A stretch of 64,000 nucleotides of DNA, from assembly GCA_965217585.1 (NCBI GenBank), contig OZ244561.1, forward strand, positions 2,336,001 through 2,400,000, written 5' to 3'. Shown in pieces: positions 31,285-42,286 of this stretch. This DNA is from Candidatus Latescibacterota bacterium (lineage in GTDB: Bacteria > Latescibacterota > UBA2968 > UBA8231). The notes under the pieces are model-generated. The model searched no databases and was not told where the DNA came from. It saw only the letters and a program-made list of their open reading frames with translations. Within the stretch, counting starts at the first letter, position 1; every line of letters begins with the position of its first letter. The translations under genes and the position numbers were made by a program.

Positions 31285-34200
31285 CTACTCGAGGTAGAGC
31301 ATGCGCCGGGTATGCACGCCGCCCGGATAGTGCAGGCGCGTGAAGTAAATCCCCGTGGCCACGCTCCGAGCCGCGGCGTCGCGGACGTCCCAGCGCACCC
31401 GGTAGGTGCCGGCCTTCTGCACCTCGTCCACGAGGGTGCGTATGCGCTGCCCGAGGATGTTGTAGATGACCAAGCGCACGGGTCCGGGCGCATCGAGTCG
31501 GTAGAGGATGACGGTGTTGCCGTTGAAGGGGTTGGGCGCGTTGGGCGCCAGGCCCGGCGGCCCGTCCGCGACCGCCGGCTTGGACGACGACTTGATTTTT
31601 TTGACCGTCAGCTCGTAGTAGCCCCACTCGAACGACTCGCCGCTCGCCGCGATGTAATAGGTGCCACCGGCATGGGCGTGAAACGTCACCCGGAACAGGT
31701 GGTGGGAGATTGATTCGTCGCGGGACCGCGTGTTGACAAGGGACTCCCCGTCCGCATCGTAGATCGCGTTGATCTGCGGGAGGCGCAGGGTGAGATCGTT
31801 GGTGGGAATCGCGCCCTTCATGTCGATCCGGTAGGTCCGGCCCTTCTTCAGCTCCACCGCGAACCAGTCGGTGTCGAACTCGTAACCATCTACGTCGTTG
31901 CCGCCTGTTCTTTCCACGAAGATCGGTTTGTAGATGGTGCTCCTGGCCCCGTCCCCGCCCACCTCAACCATGCTGGTGGTGGTCGTGTTGGCGGGCAGGT
32001 CCTCCACGTCCACCACGACGAAGATGTAGCCACGGTGGTCGTGGTCCCCTAACGGCCCGGCCAGAGACGGCTGGGTGGAGATCTCCCCGGTCACCGGCTC
32101 GGTCGATATCCCGGTGACGGTGACCACCGTGCCCTCGACCTTGCCGGCCTCCACCGTGAACACCCTCTCGCCGCCAGCGATCGTCACCGGGATAGCGACC
32201 TTGAGCGGCGCCCCCGCCAGCACCTTCGCCAGCACCTGATTGGGCCCCACATGCTCCAGGGTCACGGAAAGCGGCAGCAGATCGTCGGGGTCGGGGTTGT
32301 GGCGCAGGTCGAGAAGGAGCAGCTCCTCCAGGCCGGAGAACACGCCGTCGGGAAGCGACGTCAGATCGTTGTTGTGCAGATCGAGCAGCCCCAGCTCCTC
32401 CAGGCCGGAGAACACGCCGGCGGGAAGCGACGTCAGAGCGTTGTCTCTCAGCAAGAGGTTCTTCAGCTTCGTCAGGCCGGAGAACACGCCGGCGGGAAGC
32501 GACGTCAGAGCGTTGTCGTGCAGCCAGAGCGTCTTCAGCTTCGTCAGGCCGGAGAACACGCCGGCGGGAAGCGACGTCAGAGCGTTCTCTCTCAGCAAGA
32601 GCTCCTCCAGCTTCGTCAGGCCGGAGAACACGCCAGCGGGAAGCGACGTCAGACCGTTGTTGTACAGACGGAGCAGCTTCAGCGCCTCCAGGTCGGAGAA
32701 CACATCGGCAGGAAGCGACGTCAGAGCGTTGTTGTGCAGCCAGAGCTCCTCCAGCTCCGTCAGGCCGGAGAACACGCCGGCGGGAAGAAGCGACGTCAGA
32801 GCGTTGTTCAGCCTGAGCTTCTCTAGCGCCGTCAGGTCGGAGAACACGCCGGCGGGAAGCGACGTCAGAGCGTTGTCGTACAGCCAGAGCAGCTTCAGCT
32901 TCGTCAGGCCGGAGAACACGCCGGCGGGAAGCGACGTCAGAGCGTTGTCGTACAGATAGAGGCTCTCTAGCGCCGTCAGGTCGGAGAACACGTCAGCGGG
33001 AAGCGCGCTGAGCGTGTTGCGGCTCAGACTGAGGAACGTCAGCGCCGTCAGGCCGGAGAACACGCCGGCGGGAAGCGCGCTGAGCGTGTTGCCGCTCAGA
33101 TTGAGGCTCTCTAGCGCCGTCAGGTCGGAGAACACGTCGGCGTCAGGAAGCGTGCTGAGCGCGTTGCCGCTCAGACTGAGGTACGTCAGCGCCGTCAGGC
33201 CGGAGAACACGTCAGCGCGAAGCGACGTCAGATCGTTGTCGTGCAGATCGAGGCTCTTCAGCGCGTCCAGGTCGGAGAACACGCCGGCGGGAAGCGACGT
33301 CAGATCGTTGTCGTTCAGCCAGAGCTTATCTAGCGCCGTCAGGCCGGAGAAATCACCCGGCTTCAAGGACTGGATGTTATCATCCTCGAGATTGAAAGTA
33401 CCCGTCACGCTGGCCAGTTGCGTTGTCGTCACCTCGGCGCAGTCCGACACGCCGACGATTGCAGCCATGATCGCGTCCCGCACCTGAGCGGTGCGATCGC
33501 AGATGCTGGACAGCTGCCGCGTTCCACCGCCGGGCGCGCCGACGGGATCGTCCTCCCCGTCCGGGTCGGCCGGGTCGTCGGCTTCGACGAAAGTCGACTG
33601 CGGCGCGGCCGGCGTGGCGACGTGGAACCAGCGGGAGCGTTCGCTCACCCCGTGCGCGTTGATCGCCTTGATCCGGTAGGTATACGTCGTGCTTGCAGCC
33701 ACCGTGTCGTCGGTGTACGTCGTCGCCGCCGTGCCCGTATCCGGCACCAGTTCACTGAACTCGCCCCCTTGATCGTTCACGCGCACGCGCCGCAAGATCA
33801 CGTAGCCGGTGATGCTGGCGTCGCCAGGGTCGGCCCAGGTGAGCACCACCTGGCCGAGCGTCGCCGTGGCGGACAGCCCCGTGGGCTGGGCGGGTACGGG
33901 CGCCGCCGGCGTGTCGACGTGGAACCAGAGGGAGCGCTCGCTCACCCCGTACGCGTTGATCGCCTTGATCCGGTAGGTATACGTCGTGCTTGCAGCCACC
34001 GTGTCGTCGGTGTAGGTCGTCGCCGCCGAACCCGTGTCCGCTACCAGCTCATCGAAGTGGCCCTTCTCGTCGGTATCCCGGTTGCGCCGCAAGATCACGT
34101 AGCCGGTGATGCTGTCGTCGTCAGGATCATCCCAAGTCAGGGTTATGGCATCGTGGGACGCCGTGGCGGACAGCCCCGTGGGCTGGGCGGGTGCGGAGTC

Positions 34201-34290
34201 CTCCTGCGCCTGCACTGGTGAGCAGAGCAGGGCCAGCGCCGCGATGGCGGCGAACAGAACGGGGAATCGTCGTCTATCGGTGCGAGTCAT
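31285..34290 (-). CDS. Secreted eukaryote-like protein: 2x FN3, about 15 LRR, PPC-like domain, FlgD/T9SS-type C-terminal domain
   Basis: AGGAGG before ATG 34290; signal peptide; FN3 (LTWDDP..ITGY..YRIKA); 24-aa LRRs; NPFN...IYNILGQ...WD...GIYF. Confidence 0.9.
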   Translation of the reverse strand: MTRTDRRRFPVLFAAIAALALLCSPVQAQEDSAPAQPTGLSATASHDAITLTWDDPDDDSITGYVILRRNRDTDEKGHFDELVADTGSAATTYTDDTVAASTTYTYRIKAINAYGVSERSLWFHVDTPAAPVPAQPTGLSATATLGQVVLTWADPGDASITGYVILRRVRVNDQGGEFSELVPDTGTAATTYTDDTVAASTTYTYRIKAINAHGVSERSRWFHVATPAAPQSTFVEADDPADPDGEDDPVGAPGGGTRQLSSICDRTAQVRDAIMAAIVGVSDCAEVTTTQLASVTGTFNLEDDNIQSLKPGDFSGLTALDKLWLNDNDLTSLPAGVFSDLDALKSLDLHDNDLTSLRADVFSGLTALTYLSLSGNALSTLPDADVFSDLTALESLNLSGNTLSALPAGVFSGLTALTFLSLSRNTLSALPADVFSDLTALESLYLYDNALTSLPAGVFSGLTKLKLLWLYDNALTSLPAGVFSDLTALEKLRLNNALTSLLPAGVFSGLTELEELWLHNNALTSLPADVFSDLEALKLLRLYNNGLTSLPAGVFSGLTKLEELLLRENALTSLPAGVFSGLTKLKTLWLHDNALTSLPAGVFSGLTKLKNLLLRDNALTSLPAGVFSGLEELGLLDLHNNDLTSLPDGVFSGLEELLLLDLRHNPDPDDLLPLSVTLEHVGPNQVLAKVLAGAPLKVAIPVTIAGGERVFTVEAGKVEGTVVTVTGISTEPVTGEISTQPSLAGPLGDHDHRGYIFVVVDVEDLPANTTTTSMVEVGGDGARSTIYKPIFVERTGGNDVDGYEFDTDWFAVELKKGRTYRIDMKGAIPTNDLTLRLPQINAIYDADGESLVNTRSRDESISHHLFRVTFHAHAGGTYYIAASGESFEWGYYELTVKKIKSSSKPAVADGPPGLAPNAPNPFNGNTVILYRLDAPGPVRLVIYNILGQRIRTLVDEVQKAGTYRVRWDVRDAAARSVATGIYFTRLHYPGGVHTRRMLYLE
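32296..33400 (-). repeat. Tandem coding repeats of about 72 bp (LRR units)
   Basis: Recurring cggagaacacgccggcgggaagcgacgtcagagcgtt, about 15 units. Confidence 0.95.
33600..34195 (-). repeat. 297-bp tandem duplication (two FN3 domains)
   Basis: gccgtggcggacagccccgtgggctgggcgggt at 33863 and 34160; long identical stretches. Confidence 0.9.
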
Positions 34291-34603
34291 GGTCGTTCCT
34301 CCTTGTGCTTGTGGGGGGGTATGGGACGCCGGAGCGATAGCGAGAAACCGAGTGCTCAGCCGCTGAGGCCGGCGCAGACTCCGGTGCGTGGATAGCGGTC
34401 TCATGATTCTCCTCCGTTTGGATAGTGAACGTGTTCGGGCAGGCGCAAAAAGAAAGGGCGAACGTCTGTAAATAAGGAACAAACGTTCATATCAGGTCGC
34501 ACAACCAAGGCGACCTCCAGCCCATCGGACCTCGACCAAGAACCGAGCAGGCGCGGCCAAACAGACGTTGGCCGCAGTATGGAAAGAGTGGGTCTTAGAG
34601 AAT

Positions 34604-34827: not shown

Positions 34828-37194
34828 TCAGTAAACTACTGAGACCAACTCGGCAGCCAGCTCGGTGCTCCCATCCCCTTTGACCTTCAACCGCGCTATA
34901 TAATTGCCCGGCGGCACTTGCCCTCCCGTCCCGGTGCGCCCGTCCCACGCCAACCGCAGCGGTCCGGCCATGCCCATCGACTCTACCCCGGCCACGCGCC
35001 GTCCCGCCAAATCGAAAATCTCCAGCTGCACGGGCCGCGCTGTCAAAACATCGACCAGATCCAGTGCGACGACCAACTCGTCGTTGACCCCGTCGCCGTT
35101 GGGCGTCAACACGCTGGGGGCAATGGACATATTGGCCCACAAGGATCGACCCAGCGGCAAGCGCACCACATTGGTGCTGCTTTCCACCAACTCCGCAGCA
35201 TCCCCTGGTTCGACCCGCTGGCGCACGGGCTCGGCCAGACGACTGTCCTCCAGGAACAGCTCAAAGCGAGTGGCGTCGAGGAATATGGCCGCGGCAAAAT
35301 CCACTTCCACCAACTGCCCCGAGCGCACTGGCTGCGGCAATTGCACGGCAAAACCATCCTCCACCGCGGCCACTGCCGCTTCCCGCACCACCCCATCCAC
35401 CCGCACCTGGTCGAACTGCAAATCCGTCGAGGCCTGCACCAATAGTCGGTCAAAGCCGTTGCGCGTGCGCACGGGCCGCACATAGTAGGTGAAAATCTCC
35501 TGCCGGCCCGGTTGCACCAGCACGGGTGCCAGTTCCGCGGCCACCTGCTGGGCCAGGGGCTCGGAAAAATTCAGCACCACCCAATCCAGCAGCGCCCCCA
35601 CCGCCGGATCGCCGGATACCAGCCGCCCTTCCAGCTGCACATAGCGCCGCATGGAGGGCGACTGGAAGGGCTGGTCCGGCTCCAAGTACACCGGACTCCA
35701 CGGACTCCAATCCGCCCCTGGCACAAAGACCGTGTCAATGGGCCCGCGAAAAGAGGGGATGCGCCGCTCCCACTGCCGCTGAGTGATTTCCTTGCCCTCT
35801 GGATTGCGGTATATCACCTCGGTGTCGAGCGTATTGCCCGAGCGGCTGCGCAGCTCCAGATGCGTGCCCCCCGGGGCCTGACCGCCCCAGCGCAAGGCAT
35901 TGATATTCTTCTGTCCCTGTAAATCCAAAATGGGCGAGCGCAGATCTACCTGGACCGGCACGCCGCGGCCAAAGACCTGGAGTTCGGAGATAGTACCAGA
36001 AGCTCCGCAGCCGCGCGCAGCCGCGCCGCCGAACTCGTCGCCGCAGTTGGCGTCCCACGTCTTCCATCTGATGCGCACAAAGCGGACCGGTAGACTGGTA
36101 AAACGGTGATCGGCCAAGCCCTGTACCCGGTTGAGCTGGCCGCCCCAACCGGAGAAGTGCTTGGTCCAGAGCAGCGAGCCGTCCGGGGCCCGCGAACCGT
36201 CCGAGGTCAATACCTCGTAGAAATTGAACGAGAATCCGCGGTACTGGCGGGAAAAGGTGATCAGCCGCACCTGGTCGACCCAGTAAACAGCCCCCAGATC
36301 CAGGGTGATCTGGGCAATCACATCGGCATCGGCCCGGGTCGCCCGGATATTAGACCAGACTGTGCTGATGCGGCCGTCCATCAACTGCAGGGCATTGGCC
36401 AGATTCGGGGTATCGGGCTTCTTGGTATCGACCCCCACGACAATGTCCACGCTGCCGCCTCGCTTGATGGCCCCTTGTACCAGATTGTCGCCAAAGGCCT
36501 CCACCTCGATCTCGACCAGTCGCGCCTCGGGTGCCGCTTTCAGGACCTCTACCCGCACGAAGTGCACTGGGAAGGGCTCGTCCGGGTTCAATTCATAGGT
36601 GATCCGGCGGCGGCGGTCCTCGGTAAAGCGCTCTTTAATCCGGTACGCCAGGGTGCCTTCTATCTGCGTGCGGGTCTCGTCGCGGAACTGTTCGCCGGTG
36701 GACAGCAGCAGATCGAAAATCTCAAAGGGAGGCCCTCGCGCGGAAAAAACCAGATGCACCCGGTGGGCCGAAACCACCCGGCCCAGATCCACTTCGACAA
36801 ACCAGTCCTCGACCCTCTCGTCCAAATCCGGACCCCAGCCTGTGTCCCCGTCCCCGTCCAGCACCCCCGGTGCCTCTAGGGCATTGGAACCCACCCGGCT
36901 GATCCCCCCGCCAAAGGCCACCGCGTCCAGGGCCGCATTGTTGTTCTGGCGCACCGCCACCGGCCGAATGATCCCCTCTCGCGTCAGCTCCACCGCCCCC
37001 AGGGGCAACTCCCACTGGCGCCACTGGGCCGCTGTTGCAAAGCGCAACTCGTCGCCGGCACCCTTTTGCCAAGGGGCCAACAGAATGCCGATGGCGAGCA
37101 AAAACGCCCGGCCTGAATCCATCGCCGCACGACGGAAAATGCCCCCACTCGCCGCCGCATCCCGGCGGATTTCTACTCCCTGCTCCATCGACAC
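34828..37194 (-). CDS. Secreted protein with discoidin-like (F5/8) domains and C-terminal FlgD Ig-like domain
   Basis: VLDGDGDTGW..VEVDLG and LMDGRISTVW..ITLDLG; C-terminal TPNGDGVND..IFDLAGRRV..WDGR..VPPGNY; start uncertain. Confidence 0.72.
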   Translation of the reverse strand: MSMEQGVEIRRDAAASGGIFRRAAMDSGRAFLLAIGILLAPWQKGAGDELRFATAAQWRQWELPLGAVELTREGIIRPVAVRQNNNAALDAVAFGGGISRVGSNALEAPGVLDGDGDTGWGPDLDERVEDWFVEVDLGRVVSAHRVHLVFSARGPPFEIFDLLLSTGEQFRDETRTQIEGTLAYRIKERFTEDRRRRITYELNPDEPFPVHFVRVEVLKAAPEARLVEIEVEAFGDNLVQGAIKRGGSVDIVVGVDTKKPDTPNLANALQLMDGRISTVWSNIRATRADADVIAQITLDLGAVYWVDQVRLITFSRQYRGFSFNFYEVLTSDGSRAPDGSLLWTKHFSGWGGQLNRVQGLADHRFTSLPVRFVRIRWKTWDANCGDEFGGAAARGCGASGTISELQVFGRGVPVQVDLRSPILDLQGQKNINALRWGGQAPGGTHLELRSRSGNTLDTEVIYRNPEGKEITQRQWERRIPSFRGPIDTVFVPGADWSPWSPVYLEPDQPFQSPSMRRYVQLEGRLVSGDPAVGALLDWVVLNFSEPLAQQVAAELAPVLVQPGRQEIFTYYVRPVRTRNGFDRLLVQASTDLQFDQVRVDGVVREAAVAAVEDGFAVQLPQPVRSGQLVEVDFAAAIFLDATRFELFLEDSRLAEPVRQRVEPGDAAELVESSTNVVRLPLGRSLWANMSIAPSVLTPNGDGVNDELVVALDLVDVLTARPVQLEIFDLAGRRVAGVESMGMAGPLRLAWDGRTGTGGQVPPGNYIARLKVKGDGSTELAAELVSVVY

Positions 37195-37258: not shown

Positions 37259-40200
37259 CTAGGCCGGCAGCCCTGCAAAGAGCCGGCTGAACAGGCTGGT
37301 CAAGGGCTCGGTCTCGCCGCGCTCGGCCGCCCTAGCAAAGACTACGCCCGGCTGCGCCGCCCTAGCGGCCCGGCCCAAAATGTGGTAATCGGCCCGGCTA
37401 GGCCGCTGGGCCGCTTCCCGCGCCTCGGTCCAGCCCTGGTTGGTGGCGGCCAAACCCCATAGGGCACGCGGTGCCCGCACCTTGGCCTCCTCCACCGACA
37501 GGCCGTCGCGCCAACAACCGCGCTGAGCGAATAGACTACCATCTTCCCGATAGATCAGCCCGCCGCCCACGTATTGGATCAACTGCTGTTGGTTGCCCCG
37601 CGCCCCCGACAGCGCTAACAGGGCTAGGGGCCCCAAGTCGTTGTCGTCGAAATCGGCCTGCTGGTGGAAAGCCGCCACTAATTCGTCGCTGTACATTTGC
37701 CACTCGTCCCAATCGATCTCTGCGGGCTGCTCGGGCCACTCCTTGCCCGAACCGAGGAAGGGGTTGAAGGAGGCTCCAGACTGCTTGCAGACCTCAAAAC
37801 CGCGCCGCGTCAGTCGGTCGAGTACCTCCAGCGCTCGCTCCAAACCCTCGCGCTGCAGCACCTGGACTAGCAAGCGGTTGAGATCGCGCTTGGCGAACAG
37901 CCGGCTGCCATCCACGGCCACTCCGATCAGCCCCTCCACTTCAGCGCGACCTTCCTCCGTGCGGCACAGCCGCGCCAAACCCCATATCATGCCGTGGTAG
38001 TTGTCGGCCACGTAGCGCCATACATCCGCATCGCGCTGTATGTGTCCGGCCACCGACAGCGCGGTCTCGGCTTCGGCCTGGGCTTCCTCAGTGAGGGGCA
38101 AAAACACCTCTATCTGATCGCCATCGAAATCTAGCTCCATCAGTCGGCAAACGCGCGGATGGACGCGCACTGCGGCCCCGGCCAAACGCTGCGGACGAAA
38201 GGCCACCATCGCGGTGGGCGGCACGTGGAACACCGGGCCGTGGCCCTCGTCCACCAGCACCCGCTGGGCGCTGTATAGCAGCACCCACGAGCGTGCCATG
38301 ATCGCGTCCAGAACCTCAGCCGCTCGGGCCGAACGCCGCGCCACTTCCTCGGCGCGATCCATCTCCCGCTCTACCTGAGGCGCGAACAAAGCCCAGGCCA
38401 TTTCCTCGGGCAGGCCCACTTGGTCGAGATTCAACTCAAAACCCGAGGCAAGCGCGGCCCGGCCGCTAAACAGCGGCCTAGCCCGGAAGTGGAGGTGCTC
38501 CGGGCGCAACAACGCAGAAAAAAGATCCTCCACCCGTTGGGCCACCTGGGCCACCGCCGGTCTGACTAGGGCCTCGGGCGCTTCGCTATCGACGATGCGC
38601 TGCAAGCGCGTATTGGCTTCGACCAAATCCTCGAAGCAGCCTCGGATTGGGTCGAACTCGGTCCCCACTGGCAAAGCAACGGGGGATCCCACCGTCCCCA
38701 CTTGGCGTCCTGGGGCCCACGGATGTGGCACTGGGCGGGCCAAGGTCAGCCCCTCGGACTCGGCGAAGGAAAAGCGCAACTCCGCGCTCGCCAACTCGGC
38801 CCGTATCCCGGCCATACCCAGTAGCTGCTGCAACAAGGCAAAGCGCGGGGACGGGGGCGGGGACGGGGATACCGGACCGGTGGCCAAGCACTGGCCCAGC
38901 GCATTGGCGTCGGGCCGCTCGGCCGCGGCCGTGTTGAACAAAGCGTGGATATTGGCTACGGCCCCGGCCTCGCGCAAAGCACCGTAGGCCATCATGTCGA
39001 TTTCCGGTCCGCCGGCTCCTGCCACCGCGGTTTCCAAGCGCTCGGCCGCGGTGTGGGTCAGGCGGCCCCAGTACACCCAACCCACAGTACTGCGATAAGG
39101 CAGCTCCTCGCCTTTGAGGGTCAGTTGCTCCATGCCGTCTTCGGGCAGTCCCGCCTCGACTAGACGCGCTTTCAACATCTCTTCACTGGGTGCCTGAAAA
39201 GGTGGCACCACCGCCGGGTGCCCGGCGGCCTGGGCGAGGCGACCCATGACCGCCTCGCGCTGCTGGCCGAAATTGAGCCGCGAGACCATACTGGTGGGAC
39301 TGAAGATGAGTTCTATCGGCGCACCATCGGGCAACTGCGGCATGTCGGCGTCGGGCAGGATGCGCGTCACCACCCCTTTGGCACCGTGGCGGTTGCTCAT
39401 GCGGTCGCCCACCCCCACTGCGGCGGGAAAATCCATCCGCGCCGCGGCCGACTCGCTAATGACTAAGCCATCCTCAAACGTGTCCCCATCCCACATGATG
39501 AAGGCGGTCAACAGATTGTAGCCACCCCAAAAGTCGACGGCCCCAGGCTCGTATCCCGTCTGCACTAGGGCCGGCTCGGGTTTGTGGCCCTTGGAGGCCA
39601 AGCGTTGGTCGTACTGCTGGCGGAACCAACCCGTGGAGTGGATCGGTGCCGCTGTATCGGCTGCGCTCGTCCACTGGCGCATCATATTGATGCCCATCAG
39701 GGCGCGATTGGTATCGTCGTGTTCGAGAAAGGGCACCATGGAGGCCGAAAAACCCAAGATGCTGTCGGGCGCTTTGTCGATTCGTTCGAGCTTGCCGTCG
39801 CGGATGCGGGCACCGCGGGCCACTTCCAGCACTCGGCCGATATTGGGCCCTTCGGGGGTGCAGTAGGGGCACACTAGGCCGTATTGGCTGTAGGAGAAAA
39901 CGTCTTGGTCGTCAAAAGGCTCGACGACGACGGGGATCAAAGTCAGCCGCCGCAGATGGGTATAGCGGTCCAGCCAGTTGGTCGCCTGTAGATACTGCGA
40001 AGTTTCCTCCAAGTGGAAGTCGCGCAGCCAGGCGTCCAGCGGCAGCCAGTTGCGCACCAAGTCGCCATCCCAAGCCAACTGCTCGGGGGCCGCCTCCAAC
40101 CTTTGGTCAATAAAGTCGTAGAGCTGCTCGCCCACGCACAGAATCCGCGCTTGGTCGAGTTCGCGCCGGTCGGGATAGGGGACCACGACCCGGTAGTTGC

Positions 40201-40432
40201 CTTCAATGTGGAAAAGGCCATCGCGGTCGGGCCGAGGCAAATCCCGGTACTCAACCTCGACCGAGGCATCGCCGAGTCCCAAGCTCAGTTTAATGGAAAA
40301 AGTATAAGAGTCCTGTTGTTCGACTTGATAGTCGGCCAGCGGCAAGCGCTCGCCCAAAAGCCGGGGCAGTCGCTGGTGGACGAAAAGGTCAAAAGATTCC
40401 CTATGCCAAGGTACGTCGAGATTCAATGTCAT
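37259..40432 (-). CDS. Single-chain minimised RNA polymerase beta/beta' fusion-like protein (1057 aa)
   Basis: Collinear RpoB motifs ([45 protein letters not shown]) then RpoC motifs (FSGR..[23 protein letters not shown]); uninterrupted ORF. Confidence 0.9.
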   Translation of the reverse strand: [1057 protein letters not shown]

Positions 40433-41028
40433 TGATGTTCCTCCGGGTTATGGATAGCCTGCCAAGCCTGTGAGAGCTGGCGGCGGCCGTGGTGCAGACG
40501 CGACTTTACGGTGCCTTCGGGAATGCCCAGTCGCTCGGCGGCGTCCCGCACCTCGACTTGGGCGTCGTAGATCAGACGGAAAACCTCGCGCTTGTCCTCG
40601 GACAACTCTTGTACCTGTCGCCGCAGCCAGCGCTGCTGGTCAGCCCACTCCACTTGGGCGTCGGGGCGCTCAGACGCGGCCTCAATCATCCATTCGGGCA
40701 CTTGCTGCGTTTCCTGCTCCACGGTTTCAGACAGCATTTCCAGCCGCTGCTCCCGCCGCCGCCGCACAGTGCGCAGGTGCGTCAGGGAAAGATGAGTAGC
40801 AATGCGGAACAGCCAAGCAGCCACAGACCCTCGACCACTCCATTGGCCAGCCCGGTTCCACACCCGCAAGAAAACCTCTTGTACTACATCGTTAGCACTC
40901 GCATCGTCGCGGACGATGCAGCGCACGTGATGGTGGATCTGCTCCCGATAGCGCTCAAAGAACTGCTGGAACGCGCATGCGTCGCGTTCTTTTATTTGCG
41001 CTATAAGTTGTGGATCCGGTATCTGCAT
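40429..41028 (-). CDS. ECF sigma-70 factor
   Basis: Region 2 DVVQEVFLRVW..WLFRIA; region 4 AERLGIPEGTVKSRLHHGR; ATGA overlap with downstream gene. Confidence 0.93.
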   Translation of the reverse strand: MQIPDPQLIAQIKERDACAFQQFFERYREQIHHHVRCIVRDDASANDVVQEVFLRVWNRAGQWSGRGSVAAWLFRIATHLSLTHLRTVRRRREQRLEMLSETVEQETQQVPEWMIEAASERPDAQVEWADQQRWLRRQVQELSEDKREVFRLIYDAQVEVRDAAERLGIPEGTVKSRLHHGRRQLSQAWQAIHNPEEHQ

Positions 41029-41046: not shown

Positions 41047-41073
41047 AGACGCCGCCCGGAAAGTACAGGTTCA
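41047..41073 (-). promoter_or_regulatory. ECF-type promoter TGAACC-N16-CGTCT upstream of the sigma gene
   Basis: Minus strand reads TGAACC tgtactttccgggcgg CGTCT, ending 18 nt before the ATG; fits the AAC/CGT ECF pattern. Confidence 0.6.
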
Positions 41074-41329: not shown

Positions 41330-42286
41330 ATGAGCCTAACGCCAGCCCAACTCGACCAATTCCACCGCGACGGCTATATCATCGTTCCCGACCTATTCAC
41401 GGCTGACGAGATGGACGCTGCCCGAGCGGCGATGGAACAGACTTTCTACGGCCAATCCTTCCAGCAATGGCTGGCCGATTGCGACCGCGGTGAAGCGGCC
41501 GGGGTCTCGGACGGCTTCACCACTACGCACGACCACTCCGAGGGACGCTCGCAATTTCCCGTGGGCGCACCGGCCTTGGATCGGCTGATAGAAAACGAGA
41601 CGTATCTCGACATTTTTGAGCAATGCCTAGGCGCAAAAGCCAGCTACTGCAACGCCCACCTTTTTATGCGCTCGGGGCCTACTGACAAGCGCCATCCCGA
41701 CAATCCCTGGGAGGGGTACCACATTGACCACTACACCAATTGCCTGCTGCCGCCCCACGACCAGACAGGCCGTTTTGACTACGTCAATTCGGGGGTGTAT
41801 CTGCACGATGTCGAAGACGACGGTGCCCCCATGCTGCTCATCCCCGGCTCGCACAAAGTAGCTGGCCCCGCTTTTGTGCGGGCACTTGCCCAAGGCAACG
41901 CCGCAGGTGGGTCCTTCAAAGACCTTCGCCAAGCCACCGAACTGGCTGCCCCGGTTCCCGCCACTGGCCGACGGGGGACGGCTGCGTTCTACTCGTCGTA
42001 CCTAGTCCACGCAGCGCAACCCTTTGCCAATAAGCGCACGCAGCGCGCCTTTTGGACCTTGTCCATGTGCCGCTGCGACAACGATCGCTGGACCCGATTC
42101 GCCAATCCCTTCATCTACGGCGAACGCGAGCACATGCTGCCCTTTTTCACGGCCACCACGCCCCGAGTGCGCGGCCTGTTCGGCTGGCCCGAACCCGGAC
42201 ACCCGTACTTCACCAGCCAAACCTTGGACCTCTTGGAACATACCCTACCCGGTATTGATACAGGCCCCTATCGCGATGACAGTTGA
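41330..42286 (+). CDS. PhyH family Fe/2OG dioxygenase
   Basis: LTPAQLDQFHRDGY, YHIDH, IPGSH, YLVHAA. Confidence 0.85.
   Translation: MSLTPAQLDQFHRDGYIIVPDLFTADEMDAARAAMEQTFYGQSFQQWLADCDRGEAAGVSDGFTTTHDHSEGRSQFPVGAPALDRLIENETYLDIFEQCLGAKASYCNAHLFMRSGPTDKRHPDNPWEGYHIDHYTNCLLPPHDQTGRFDYVNSGVYLHDVEDDGAPMLLIPGSHKVAGPAFVRALAQGNAAGGSFKDLRQATELAAPVPATGRRGTAAFYSSYLVHAAQPFANKRTQRAFWTLSMCRCDNDRWTRFANPFIYGEREHMLPFFTATTPRVRGLFGWPEPGHPYFTSQTLDLLEHTLPGIDTGPYRDDS

Follow-up and report, generated by a model that had tools for sequence, protein, structure and literature searches.

The window analyzed here is a 64,000-nucleotide stretch (positions 2,336,001 to 2,400,000) of contig OZ244561.1, assembly GCA_965217585.1, from a Candidatus Latescibacterota bacterium. 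Its minus strand carries a gene, P0001, for a 1057-amino-acid (aa) protein in which trimmed counterparts of the bacterial RNA polymerase (RNAP) subunits beta and beta' are joined in one chain, called here a mini-RNAP, and a gene for a sigma factor of the extracytoplasmic function (ECF) type lies immediately upstream. P0001 is an extra, non-canonical polymerase-like gene; canonical rpoB (1814 bits) and rpoC (1773 bits) genes are present ~3 Mb away in the same 7.32-Mb single-contig genome. The mini-RNAP retains the Mg-binding aspartates of the polymerase active site and lacks both ribose contacts of Escherichia coli beta', R425 and N458, whose positions are occupied by S721 and E766.

37259..40432, minus strand: mini-RNAP (P0001), 1057 aa, a trimmed beta::beta' fusion (open reading frame [ORF] and translation, Pfam, NCBIfam, AlphaFold2 model)
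40429..41028, minus strand: dedicated ECF-type sigma factor, 199 aa, gene immediately upstream of the mini-RNAP (Pfam, TIGR02937)
41048..41073, minus strand: candidate ECF-type promoter TGAACC-N15-GCGTC, ending 20 nucleotides (nt) before the sigma start codon (predicted from conservation)
38510..38662, minus strand: helical hairpin, residues 591-641, homologous to the beta' clamp helices (model helices 591-615 and 620-641; profile alignment)
37409..37495, minus strand: bridge helix, residues 980-1008 (model helix; profile alignment to host beta' 780, ...THGARKGLADTALKTAEAGY)

Architecture of the mini-RNAP

P0001 contains the Pfam domains RNA_pol_Rpb2_3 (residues 146-210), RNA_pol_Rpb2_6 (340-467, E 3.7e-32), and RNA_pol_Rpb1_2 (741-792, E 8.9e-13). 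It scores 167.3 bits with the NCBIfam rpoB model TIGR02013 (cut-off 801.15) and 92.8 bits with the rpoC model TIGR02386 (cut-off 963.5), which places it outside both equivalogs, and by sequence it matches bacterial beta (2e-46) and beta' (about 1e-21) best in the PDB. The AlphaFold2 model, computed from a 140-sequence alignment, has a mean predicted local distance difference test (pLDDT) score of 93.6 and a predicted template modeling (pTM) score of 0.91. In the PDB, Foldseek matches the model best to beta and beta' chains from bacteria and plastids (E 1e-22 to 1e-18), and VIA-align places residues 1-550 onto beta/Rpb2 chains with Z scores of 27-28.5 and a root mean square deviation of 2.5-3.0 over ~520 aligned residues, spanning the whole target chain.

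The retained parts were delimited by aligning a profile of the P0001 family with the canonical subunits of the host. From beta, they are residues 428-538 (the fork), 604-665 (FLEHDD...NMQRQ), 747-781 (FED), and 1034-1266 (GDK to the C terminus), and from beta', residues 269-493 (clamp helices, switch 2, NRAPTLH, and NADFDGD) and 562-780 (to the bridge helix). Family profile positions 561-749 align with host beta' 269-493, beginning at DLYRRVINRNNRLKKL; within this segment, switch 2 is present as FSGRA at residues 655-659, and the profile follows host beta' through ...THGARKGLADTALKT. In canonical RNAP, the clamp helices are the docking site of sigma region 2. The same alignment contains no counterpart of the beta lobes or of host beta 781-1034 (the flap), with only ~22 residues between FED and GDR, and no counterpart of the beta' N-terminal clamp, the rudder, or anything past the bridge helix. 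No trigger-loop match was obtained in NCBIfam, PDB sequence, or family-profile searches, and just 49 residues lie beyond the bridge helix; hence, the trigger-loop substrate contacts beta' Q929 and M932 also have no recognizable counterpart in P0001. The final 47 residues after the bridge helix (1011-1057; 37259..37399, minus strand) are among the best-conserved parts of the family and have no match in beta'. In this tail, A1035 is invariant, and R1021, A1022, R1024, P1028, G1029, V1031, A1033, A1036, E1040, P1043, L1044, R1050, L1051, and G1054 are near-invariant.

P0001 is clearly of the bacterial lineage. Like canonical RpoB/RpoC, it has two double-psi beta-barrels, a fork, clamp helices, switch 2, and a bridge helix, together with the catalytic motifs (the beta basic motif as GDR in this genome), and its beta-then-beta' order is that of the fused subunits of Helicobacter and Wolbachia (NCBIfam NF007172 and NF011417). 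It differs from canonical RpoB/RpoC (~2600-2900 aa) in having only ~1057 residues, with no lobes, flap, N-terminal clamp, rudder, jaw, or recognizable trigger loop, and in being an accessory extra copy of patchy occurrence; its clade has lost R425 and N458, and K1065 is also substituted in this genome.

Active-site motifs and their conservation

The active-site features of P0001 are the following.

38117..38131, minus strand: DFDGD, the Mg-binding aspartate triad D768, D770, and D772 (residues 768-772; translation)
38135..38137, minus strand: E766 at the beta' N458 position (direct reading and alignment column)
38258..38275, minus strand: YSAQRV replacing NRAPTL, with S721 at the beta' R425 position (residues 720-725; alignment)
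38222..38257, minus strand: clade-specific insert LVDEGHGPVFHV, predicted disordered (residues 726-737, 12 residues, directly after YSAQRV)
39374..39409, minus strand: beta basic motif GDRMSNRHGAKG, with R344 at K1065 and K352 at K1073 (residues 342-353; direct reading)
39470..39478, minus strand: FED, with the beta acidic pair E320/D321 (residues 319-321; direct reading)
39272..39283, minus strand: SRLN (residues 384-387; direct reading)
39053..39055, minus strand: H460, the histidine of LTH (direct reading)

An earlier, sequence-only reading of this DNA had listed DFDGD, ELDFDGD, YSAQRV plus an insertion, FED, RHGAKG, SRLN, and the LTH histidine, and DNA reading and translation agree on every one of these motifs, all on the minus strand. 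E766 and L767 precede DFDGD, giving ELDFDGD where the universal form is NADFDGD, and the beta basic motif has GDR for canonical GDK with RHGAKG retained. The matches are not due to chance, because the beta' motifs sit inside RNA_pol_Rpb1_2 and the beta motifs inside RNA_pol_Rpb2_6. The canonical beta' of the same genome carries LLNRAPTLHKLGIQAF (NRAPTLH) ...NADFDGD.

We take Y720, S721, and E766 to correspond to N424, R425, and N458 in the E. coli numbering. These numbers agree with those in the accessible text of PMC7862312. The register is supported by an alignment of 66 family representatives, in which the S721 column is R in 55 rows and the Q723 column is P in 58, and by the AlphaFold2 model, in which the strand 717-720 stops just before S721. 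Other alignments (phmmer against 6wvj_D and MAFFT with 177 sequences) set GHGPVFH or HGPVF of the insert under (N)RAPTL(H), and since these placements differ, sequence alone leaves the residue-level register unsettled. GHGPVFH was considered as the true counterpart of NRAPTLH and rejected: orthologs with 90% identity lack the histidine and most of the insert, and disorder is predicted for the segment. The insert is gapped in 64 to 65 of the 66 representatives across residues 726-735, varies in length and sequence even between 90%-identical orthologs, and is the only part of the model with a pLDDT below 50 (residues 725-735).

The 66-row alignment consists of P0001 and 65 full-length representatives of 50%-identity clusters, which were among the 380 matches below 1e-30 in an exhaustive search of representatives. 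The sequence-only reading had suggested comparing homologs at these sites, and the comparison bears out the pattern that it anticipated: DxDGD is near-invariant and the N458 position is variable. The five DFDGD columns contain D in 64 rows, F in 57, D in 64, G in 65, and D in 63. The N458 column (E766) is N in 37, D in 18, E in 5, Q in 3, G in 2, and S in 1, and the R425 column (S721) is R in 55, S in 3, K in 3, G in 2, H in 2, and C in 1. The N424 column is N in 28, H in 11, and Y in 9; P427 is P in 58; and K1065 is kept in 59. On the beta side, the members outside the clade of P0001 (n = 118) have E320 in 107, D321 in 113, D343 in 117, K344 in 113, R348 in 118, K352 in 115, R385 in 117, and H460 in 113. 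The family consensus is canonical (...RAP...PT...AF.PVR....AIR.HP..C.LMNADFDGDQ.AVFLP and GDKLSNRHG.KG), and a Spirochaete member with 30% identity reads LLNRAPT...NLDFDGD. This makes a canonical sequence the ancestral state. The ancestor was most likely an RNAP that was directed by sigma and had no trigger loop, and, judged by residue pattern, the family in general resembles an active nucleotidyl transferase. R425 is replaced (by K, S, H, or G) with DFDGD kept in 8 of the 66 representatives, a recurrent state that is not confined to the clade of P0001; examples of R425-less, aspartate-bearing proteins are P0127 and P0133 (sister group of the clade), P0125, P0129, P0165, P0171, and P0186.

In phylogenetic analyses, P0001 falls in a monophyletic clade with support values of 100 (FastTree) and 99 (quick IQ-TREE). 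The hallmarks of this clade are LYS[AG]Q replacing NRAP, E at the N458 position (in all 22 clade rows except P0067), and an insert of variable length and sequence, whereas the nearest outgroups have LY-RAPA...[ND]ADFDGD and no insert. Relative to the canonical sequence, P0001 shows R425S, N424Y, P427Q, and N458E, with a floppy loop inserted right after, and K1065R in this genome. Within the clade, the acidic pair is kept in nearly all of the 22 rows (E in 20, D in 22). The mean pairwise identity is 0.70 in the beta fork and 0.69 in the beta barrel, compared with 0.55 over the whole protein.

Sigma factor, promoter, and family distribution

The sigma gene matches Sigma70_r2 (2.6e-15), Sigma70_r4_2 (5.3e-14), and TIGR02937 (101.8 bits, cut-off 42.9) and has regions 2 and 4 only; no named ECF subgroup model in NCBIfam reached its cut-off. 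Its TGA stop codon overlaps the ATG of the mini-RNAP gene (ATGA). Thirty-six loci were examined for this linkage, and L012, which has no upstream DNA, was left out of the count. In 32 of the 35 assessable loci, from at least four phyla, the mini-RNAP gene is immediately preceded by a sigma ortholog on the same strand, while the other neighbors are not conserved across loci. The sigma gene is missing from L105, L106, and L116 and frameshifted in L101. Two of these loci are degraded modules from the genus of the window: in L106 (genome G146), the N terminus of the polymerase is broken, the sigma gene is gone, and a PhyH-like gene is adjacent, and L101 (genome G141) is the locus with the frameshift. 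In L105 and L116, the polymerase gene is intact and has no adjoining sigma gene.

The promoter candidate belongs to a motif, TGAAC[CT]-N14-15-[GC]NGTC, that was found in 13 of the 14 loci read at a distance of ~20-45 nt upstream of the start codon of the sigma gene, with a variant in L010. The loci concerned (including L008 to L011 and L108 to L115) span Latescibacterota, Poribacteria, Caldilineaceae, and Spirochaetales. The sigma and mini-RNAP genes form a conserved two-gene operon, a chromosomal module that is probably autoregulated. Contigs from RNA libraries that are 90-95% similar to parts of both genes were found in three runs from two studies, and one of them crosses the sigma/polymerase junction; they are contigs of relatives, from metatranscriptomes that possibly contain DNA. 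The organization resembles that of ECF sigma/anti-sigma modules, which likewise have an autoregulated ECF-type sigma factor, a coupled partner gene, and a GAAC...GTC promoter, but in which the partner is an anti-sigma domain protein rather than a mini-RNAP (PMC7826278). The terms Rpb1, Rpb2, PF00562, and PF00623 do not occur in the main text and one supplementary file of that article.

A predicted complex of residues 1-800 of P0001 with the sigma factor scored 0.54, and the best of three controls scored 0.00. Of 80 solved complexes in the benchmark, 58 attained the passing mark, as did 2 of 110 mismatched pairs; the passing scores of 0.60 or less comprise just 7 of these 80 complexes together with both mismatches. 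The runs share at least 43% of their contacts, with a partner pLDDT of at least 65. Sigma/beta' complexes have already been solved, and the pass may reflect likeness only; the prediction weakly suggests that the mini-RNAP binds its sigma factor. The linker between sigma regions 2 and 4 (residues about 100-125; gene 40432-41028, minus strand) is unusually conserved for an ECF sigma factor (VP.WMID.A...PDA). In 15 orthologs, P111 and P122 are invariant and W113 is near-invariant, and this linker could be a contact for the mini-RNAP.

Full-length homologs of P0001 are numerous, about 1000-1075 aa long, and 43-94% identical to it. They were found in metagenome-assembled genomes of Latescibacteria, Gemmatimonadota, Hydrogenedentes, Poribacteria, and Chloroflexi, on contigs that reach 8 Mb, and every named one is annotated as a "hypothetical protein". 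A pattern search of genome contigs returned 80 loci, mostly true rpoB-rpoC since the patterns also fit canonical beta, and only L007 to L012 are family members. The gene is carried by 66 of the 168 genomes of the phylum and 21 of the 30 of the genus, usually as a single copy, and is lacking in some complete single-contig genomes; this patchy occurrence indicates an accessory gene. Among matching phage and plasmid records, 0 of 32 and 0 of 68, respectively, cover at least 80% of the query. A PHROG search matched solely long beta- and beta'-like families, PADLOC returned no hit for the polymerase, and the loci examined contain no linked primase, helicase, reverse transcriptase, nuclease, or defense gene.

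The sigma-coupled, ~1000-aa single-chain beta::beta' family is apparently undescribed, and it is the larger point of this locus. Literature searches, whose incomplete coverage leaves out most subscription journals, found no account of an ECF-sigma-linked mini beta::beta' protein, and Atlas clusters with the same domain make-up bear automatic names only ("DNA-directed RNA polymerase family protein" and "hypothetical protein"). The nearest Atlas neighbors include single proteins of 1200-1800 aa with Rpb2_6 and Rpb1_2, a hint that other, larger types of beta::beta' fusion exist. Two known single-chain polymerases are comparable. As described in the accessible parts of PMC5467207 and PMC2919709, YonO of the SPbeta prophage of Bacillus subtilis is likewise a ~100-kDa single-chain two-barrel protein that could act without alpha and omega. 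By those descriptions, it is prophage encoded and very distant from multisubunit RNAPs, whereas the P0001 family is chromosomal, recognizably beta/beta', and tied to a sigma factor. The Rpb2::Rpb1 fusion Orf6 of yeast killer plasmids resembles P0001 in fusion order, size, and the simplification of its active-site region; unlike P0001, it is described as belonging to a eukaryotic cytoplasmic linear plasmid, with eukaryote-type relatives and no sigma factor (PMC2919709 and PMC6211774, accessible parts).

Selection on the active site and possible function

Nine core residues (E320, D321, D343, R348, K352, R385, D768, D770, and D772) are intact in 48 of 48 sequences with at least 86% identity to P0001 and in P0048, P0049, and P0054. 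The whole-gene ratio of nonsynonymous to synonymous substitution rates (dN/dS) is 0.13-0.18 between P0001 and 18 same-genus orthologs, and the codons of D770 and D772 show synonymous GAC/GAT variants without any replacement among 19 orthologs. The path from the clade root to P0001 amounts to ~0.56 substitutions per site, and by rough arithmetic, nine unconstrained sites would all survive it with a probability of ~exp(-5). The preservation of these residues over a long branch, together with the low dN/dS, indicates that the Mg center is still under selection in the lineage of the window, in agreement with the sequence-only reading. The switch-2 arginine is also kept in this genus, unlike in sister lineages. 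It is very improbable that P0001 is a decaying, functionless gene in this genome. Its patchy occurrence, with 21 of 30 genus genomes carrying it and some complete genomes without it, and the degraded loci L106 and L101 would fit decay, but the 1057-codon ORF is intact, as are the sigma gene, its overlap with the ORF, and the promoter; in addition, dN/dS is low and the model is highly confident.

The mutant phenotypes of E. coli RNAP offer a guide to the consequences of the replaced residues. The accessible text of PMC7862312 describes R425 and N458 as universally conserved and R425 as the major determinant of selection against 2'-dNTPs, with small effects of N458S; this backs the statement in the sequence-only reading that both residues contribute to sugar selection. 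In the same text, R425K lowers GTP affinity and selectivity, the latter 17- to 25-fold per step, and the R425L enzyme is described as "strongly defective during processive transcription". The beta substitution K1065R is cited in the accessible part of PMC7708050 as abolishing transcription in E. coli. With a probability of about one half, we infer that P0001 is a Mg-binding, sigma-partnered enzyme whose synthesis is weak, sugar-unselective, and poorly processive. Such a protein would still form phosphodiester bonds and bind template, nucleotides, and Mg2+. Its catalysis, judged from the E. coli R425 and K1065 mutants, would be slow, with weak NTP binding, little discrimination between rNTPs and dNTPs, poor processivity, and short products at best. 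Because sister lineages have repeatedly lost aspartates and kept the ORF, and at L108 also the sigma gene and promoter, part of the selected function of the module must lie in binding and not in efficient synthesis; the clamp helices may hold the sigma factor, and the still highly conserved beta fork and barrel may hold promoter or hybrid nucleic acid.

Several observations weigh against the view that P0001 is such a weak enzyme. Among the 19 close orthologs, 664 of 1057 columns do not vary at all, and the conservation of the aspartates there carries little weight on its own. At the K1065 position (residue 344), 13 of the 19 same-genus orthologs have AAA (K) and 6 have CGC (R), the state of the window; the change from GDK to GDR noted in the sequence-only reading is thus real in the window and not fixed in the genus, and the polymorphism implies that this site is no longer tightly held. 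The combination of K1065R with the loss of R425 and N458 and the apparent lack of a trigger loop could leave no useful catalysis. A scan of the 7.3-Mb genome with TGAAC[CT]-N14-16-G[CT]GTC gave 31 sites, compared with ~40 expected under uniform base composition, and only the site of the operon itself is convincing. The predicted sigma binding is weakly supported. The flap, the docking site of sigma region 4 in canonical RNAP, is gone, while the promoter has standard ECF -35/-10 geometry, and these two features would fit a sigma factor that acts with the host core rather than with the mini-RNAP. In addition, catalytic residues have been lost in the sister lineages. Among the nine more distant clade members (P0054, P0055, P0059, P0060, P0061, P0062, P0063, P0064, and P0067), six have lost an aspartate (DFDGN in four, SFDGD in one, and YFDGD in one), and six have lost the second lysine, K352. 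The sequence-only reading had named free loss of the aspartates in homologs as evidence that would contradict it; such loss is seen in these members, but not in the genus of the window. A role independent of catalysis is therefore conceivable. Compensation for R425 by R724 or H731 is also conceivable.

These losses raise the possible, although rather doubtful, alternative that the clade protein is non-catalytic and acts by binding, as a partner, chaperone, or decoy of the sigma factor (core mimicry) or as a scaffold on promoter or other nucleic acid. Inside the clade, the tree requires at least four independent changes of the triad state and at least three of the K352 state. The more distant members are without the switch-2 arginine and yet full-length. 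At L108 (D768Y), the sole aspartate-loss locus examined, the ORF is intact and the sigma gene and promoter are retained. In the family as a whole, 11 of 177 full-length members have lost an aspartate, P0123 and P0192 have lost all three, and the clamp helices remain recognizable in every one of these proteins, including the latter two. All three triad losses among the 66 representatives occur on an R425-less background (3 of 11 R425-less versus 0 of 55 R425-bearing proteins, counts that are not phylogenetically independent). P0001 itself combines K1065R with the absence of R425, which in E. coli are the abolishing and, as R425L, the defective substitutions cited above. Its gene is translationally coupled to the sigma gene and occupies the operon position usual for ECF anti-sigma factors. 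A purely binding protein is harder to reconcile with the nine core residues and the switch-2 arginine kept in the genus of the window over a long branch, with the beta fork and barrel being the most conserved regions of the clade, which exceeds the needs of sigma docking, and with the weak prediction of sigma binding.

An ordinary, rNTP-selective RNAP that transcribes the targets specified by its sigma factor in the normal way would require replacements for the lost contacts, with E766 reaching the ribose and R724 or H731 standing in for R425. The Mg triad, E320/D321, R348, K352, R385, and H460 are intact, dN/dS is low, and the E, D, and Q that are common at the N458 position in the family can all form hydrogen bonds. 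R724 (of AQRV) is present in 19 of 19 same-genus orthologs (CGG or CGA). In the remaining clade members, however, this position is E, D, or another residue (SAQEV, SGQET, SGQDV, and GGKEI), and H731 sits in the predicted disordered insert and is absent from most 90%-identical orthologs. The trigger-loop contacts Q929 and M932 appear to be gone as well, and R425K alone reduces the selectivity of the E. coli enzyme as stated above. Normal transcription by P0001 is thus unlikely.

The loss of both ribose contacts and, apparently, of the trigger loop might instead mark a changed product, namely, a preference for dNTPs or the synthesis of DNA, mixed primers, or short signaling oligonucleotides, in parallel to the origin of PolD from a two-barrel RNAP core. 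According to the accessible part of PMC7708050, DP2 of archaeal PolD has a two-barrel core with the acidic and basic motifs kept, and a selectivity motif in the same neighborhood alters the sugar choice, showing that such a core can become a DNA polymerase; the phmmer alignment that sets the histidine-containing GHGPVFH under NRAPTLH would be in keeping with this. As described there, PolD has a conserved steric-gate histidine and an exonuclease partner, whereas the alignment of the P0001 clade reveals no conserved histidine or aromatic steric-gate residue at the selectivity site, the insert varies, and its histidine is missing in most close orthologs. The lack of linked replication, nuclease, or defense genes at the loci examined and of a PADLOC hit also speaks against a changed product, and the sister lineages lose catalysis rather than refine it. 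We regard this reading as quite improbable. The altered substrate or product proposed in the sequence-only reading is consistent with the missing sugar contacts, but relaxed or partly abandoned catalysis is at least as likely, and relaxed constraint on catalysis would explain the substitutions as well as a new substrate would. For the primer synthesis or hydrolysis that it also suggested, we found no evidence. Overall, its interpretation stands in part, and the dedicated sigma gene and the canonical family consensus had escaped it.

We tentatively propose that the sigma factor and the beta::beta' protein form a self-contained mini transcription machine, which in the clade of the window has turned into a sugar-unselective synthase of short products or a silent core mimic. 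If so, it would be the smallest sigma-using cellular-type RNAP, without alpha, omega, flap, and trigger loop. If the family is active, it would represent a minimal, ~115-kDa one-chain sigma-dependent RNAP that shows what parts of the 400-kDa core promoter-directed synthesis can do without; with its own sigma factor and promoter, it would also offer a small orthogonal module for transcription. If P0001 only binds sigma, it would exemplify a novel type of sigma partner made out of the polymerase, and a core mimic would be the first anti-sigma-like regulator derived from RNAP itself. In either case, the clade is a natural mutagenesis series in which R425-less, N458-less, K1065R, and aspartate-less forms occur beside canonical relatives, and it can be used for testing the proposed role of R425 in sugar selection and the conversion of a polymerase into a non-catalytic regulator.

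Two large genes downstream of the operon, both on the minus strand, are not conserved beside the module in other genomes. The gene at 31285-34482 encodes a probably secreted protein of 1065 aa with two fn3 domains, ~11 LRR_8 units, a PPC domain, and a FlgD_ig/Por-secretion-like tail, and that at 34828-37194 encodes a probably secreted protein of 788 aa with F5/8 type C-like and CHU_C/FlgD_ig domains. On the other side, a PhyH-family dioxygenase gene (41330-42286, plus strand) is divergent from the sigma promoter region, and the same neighbor is found in same-genus loci such as L007 and L106.

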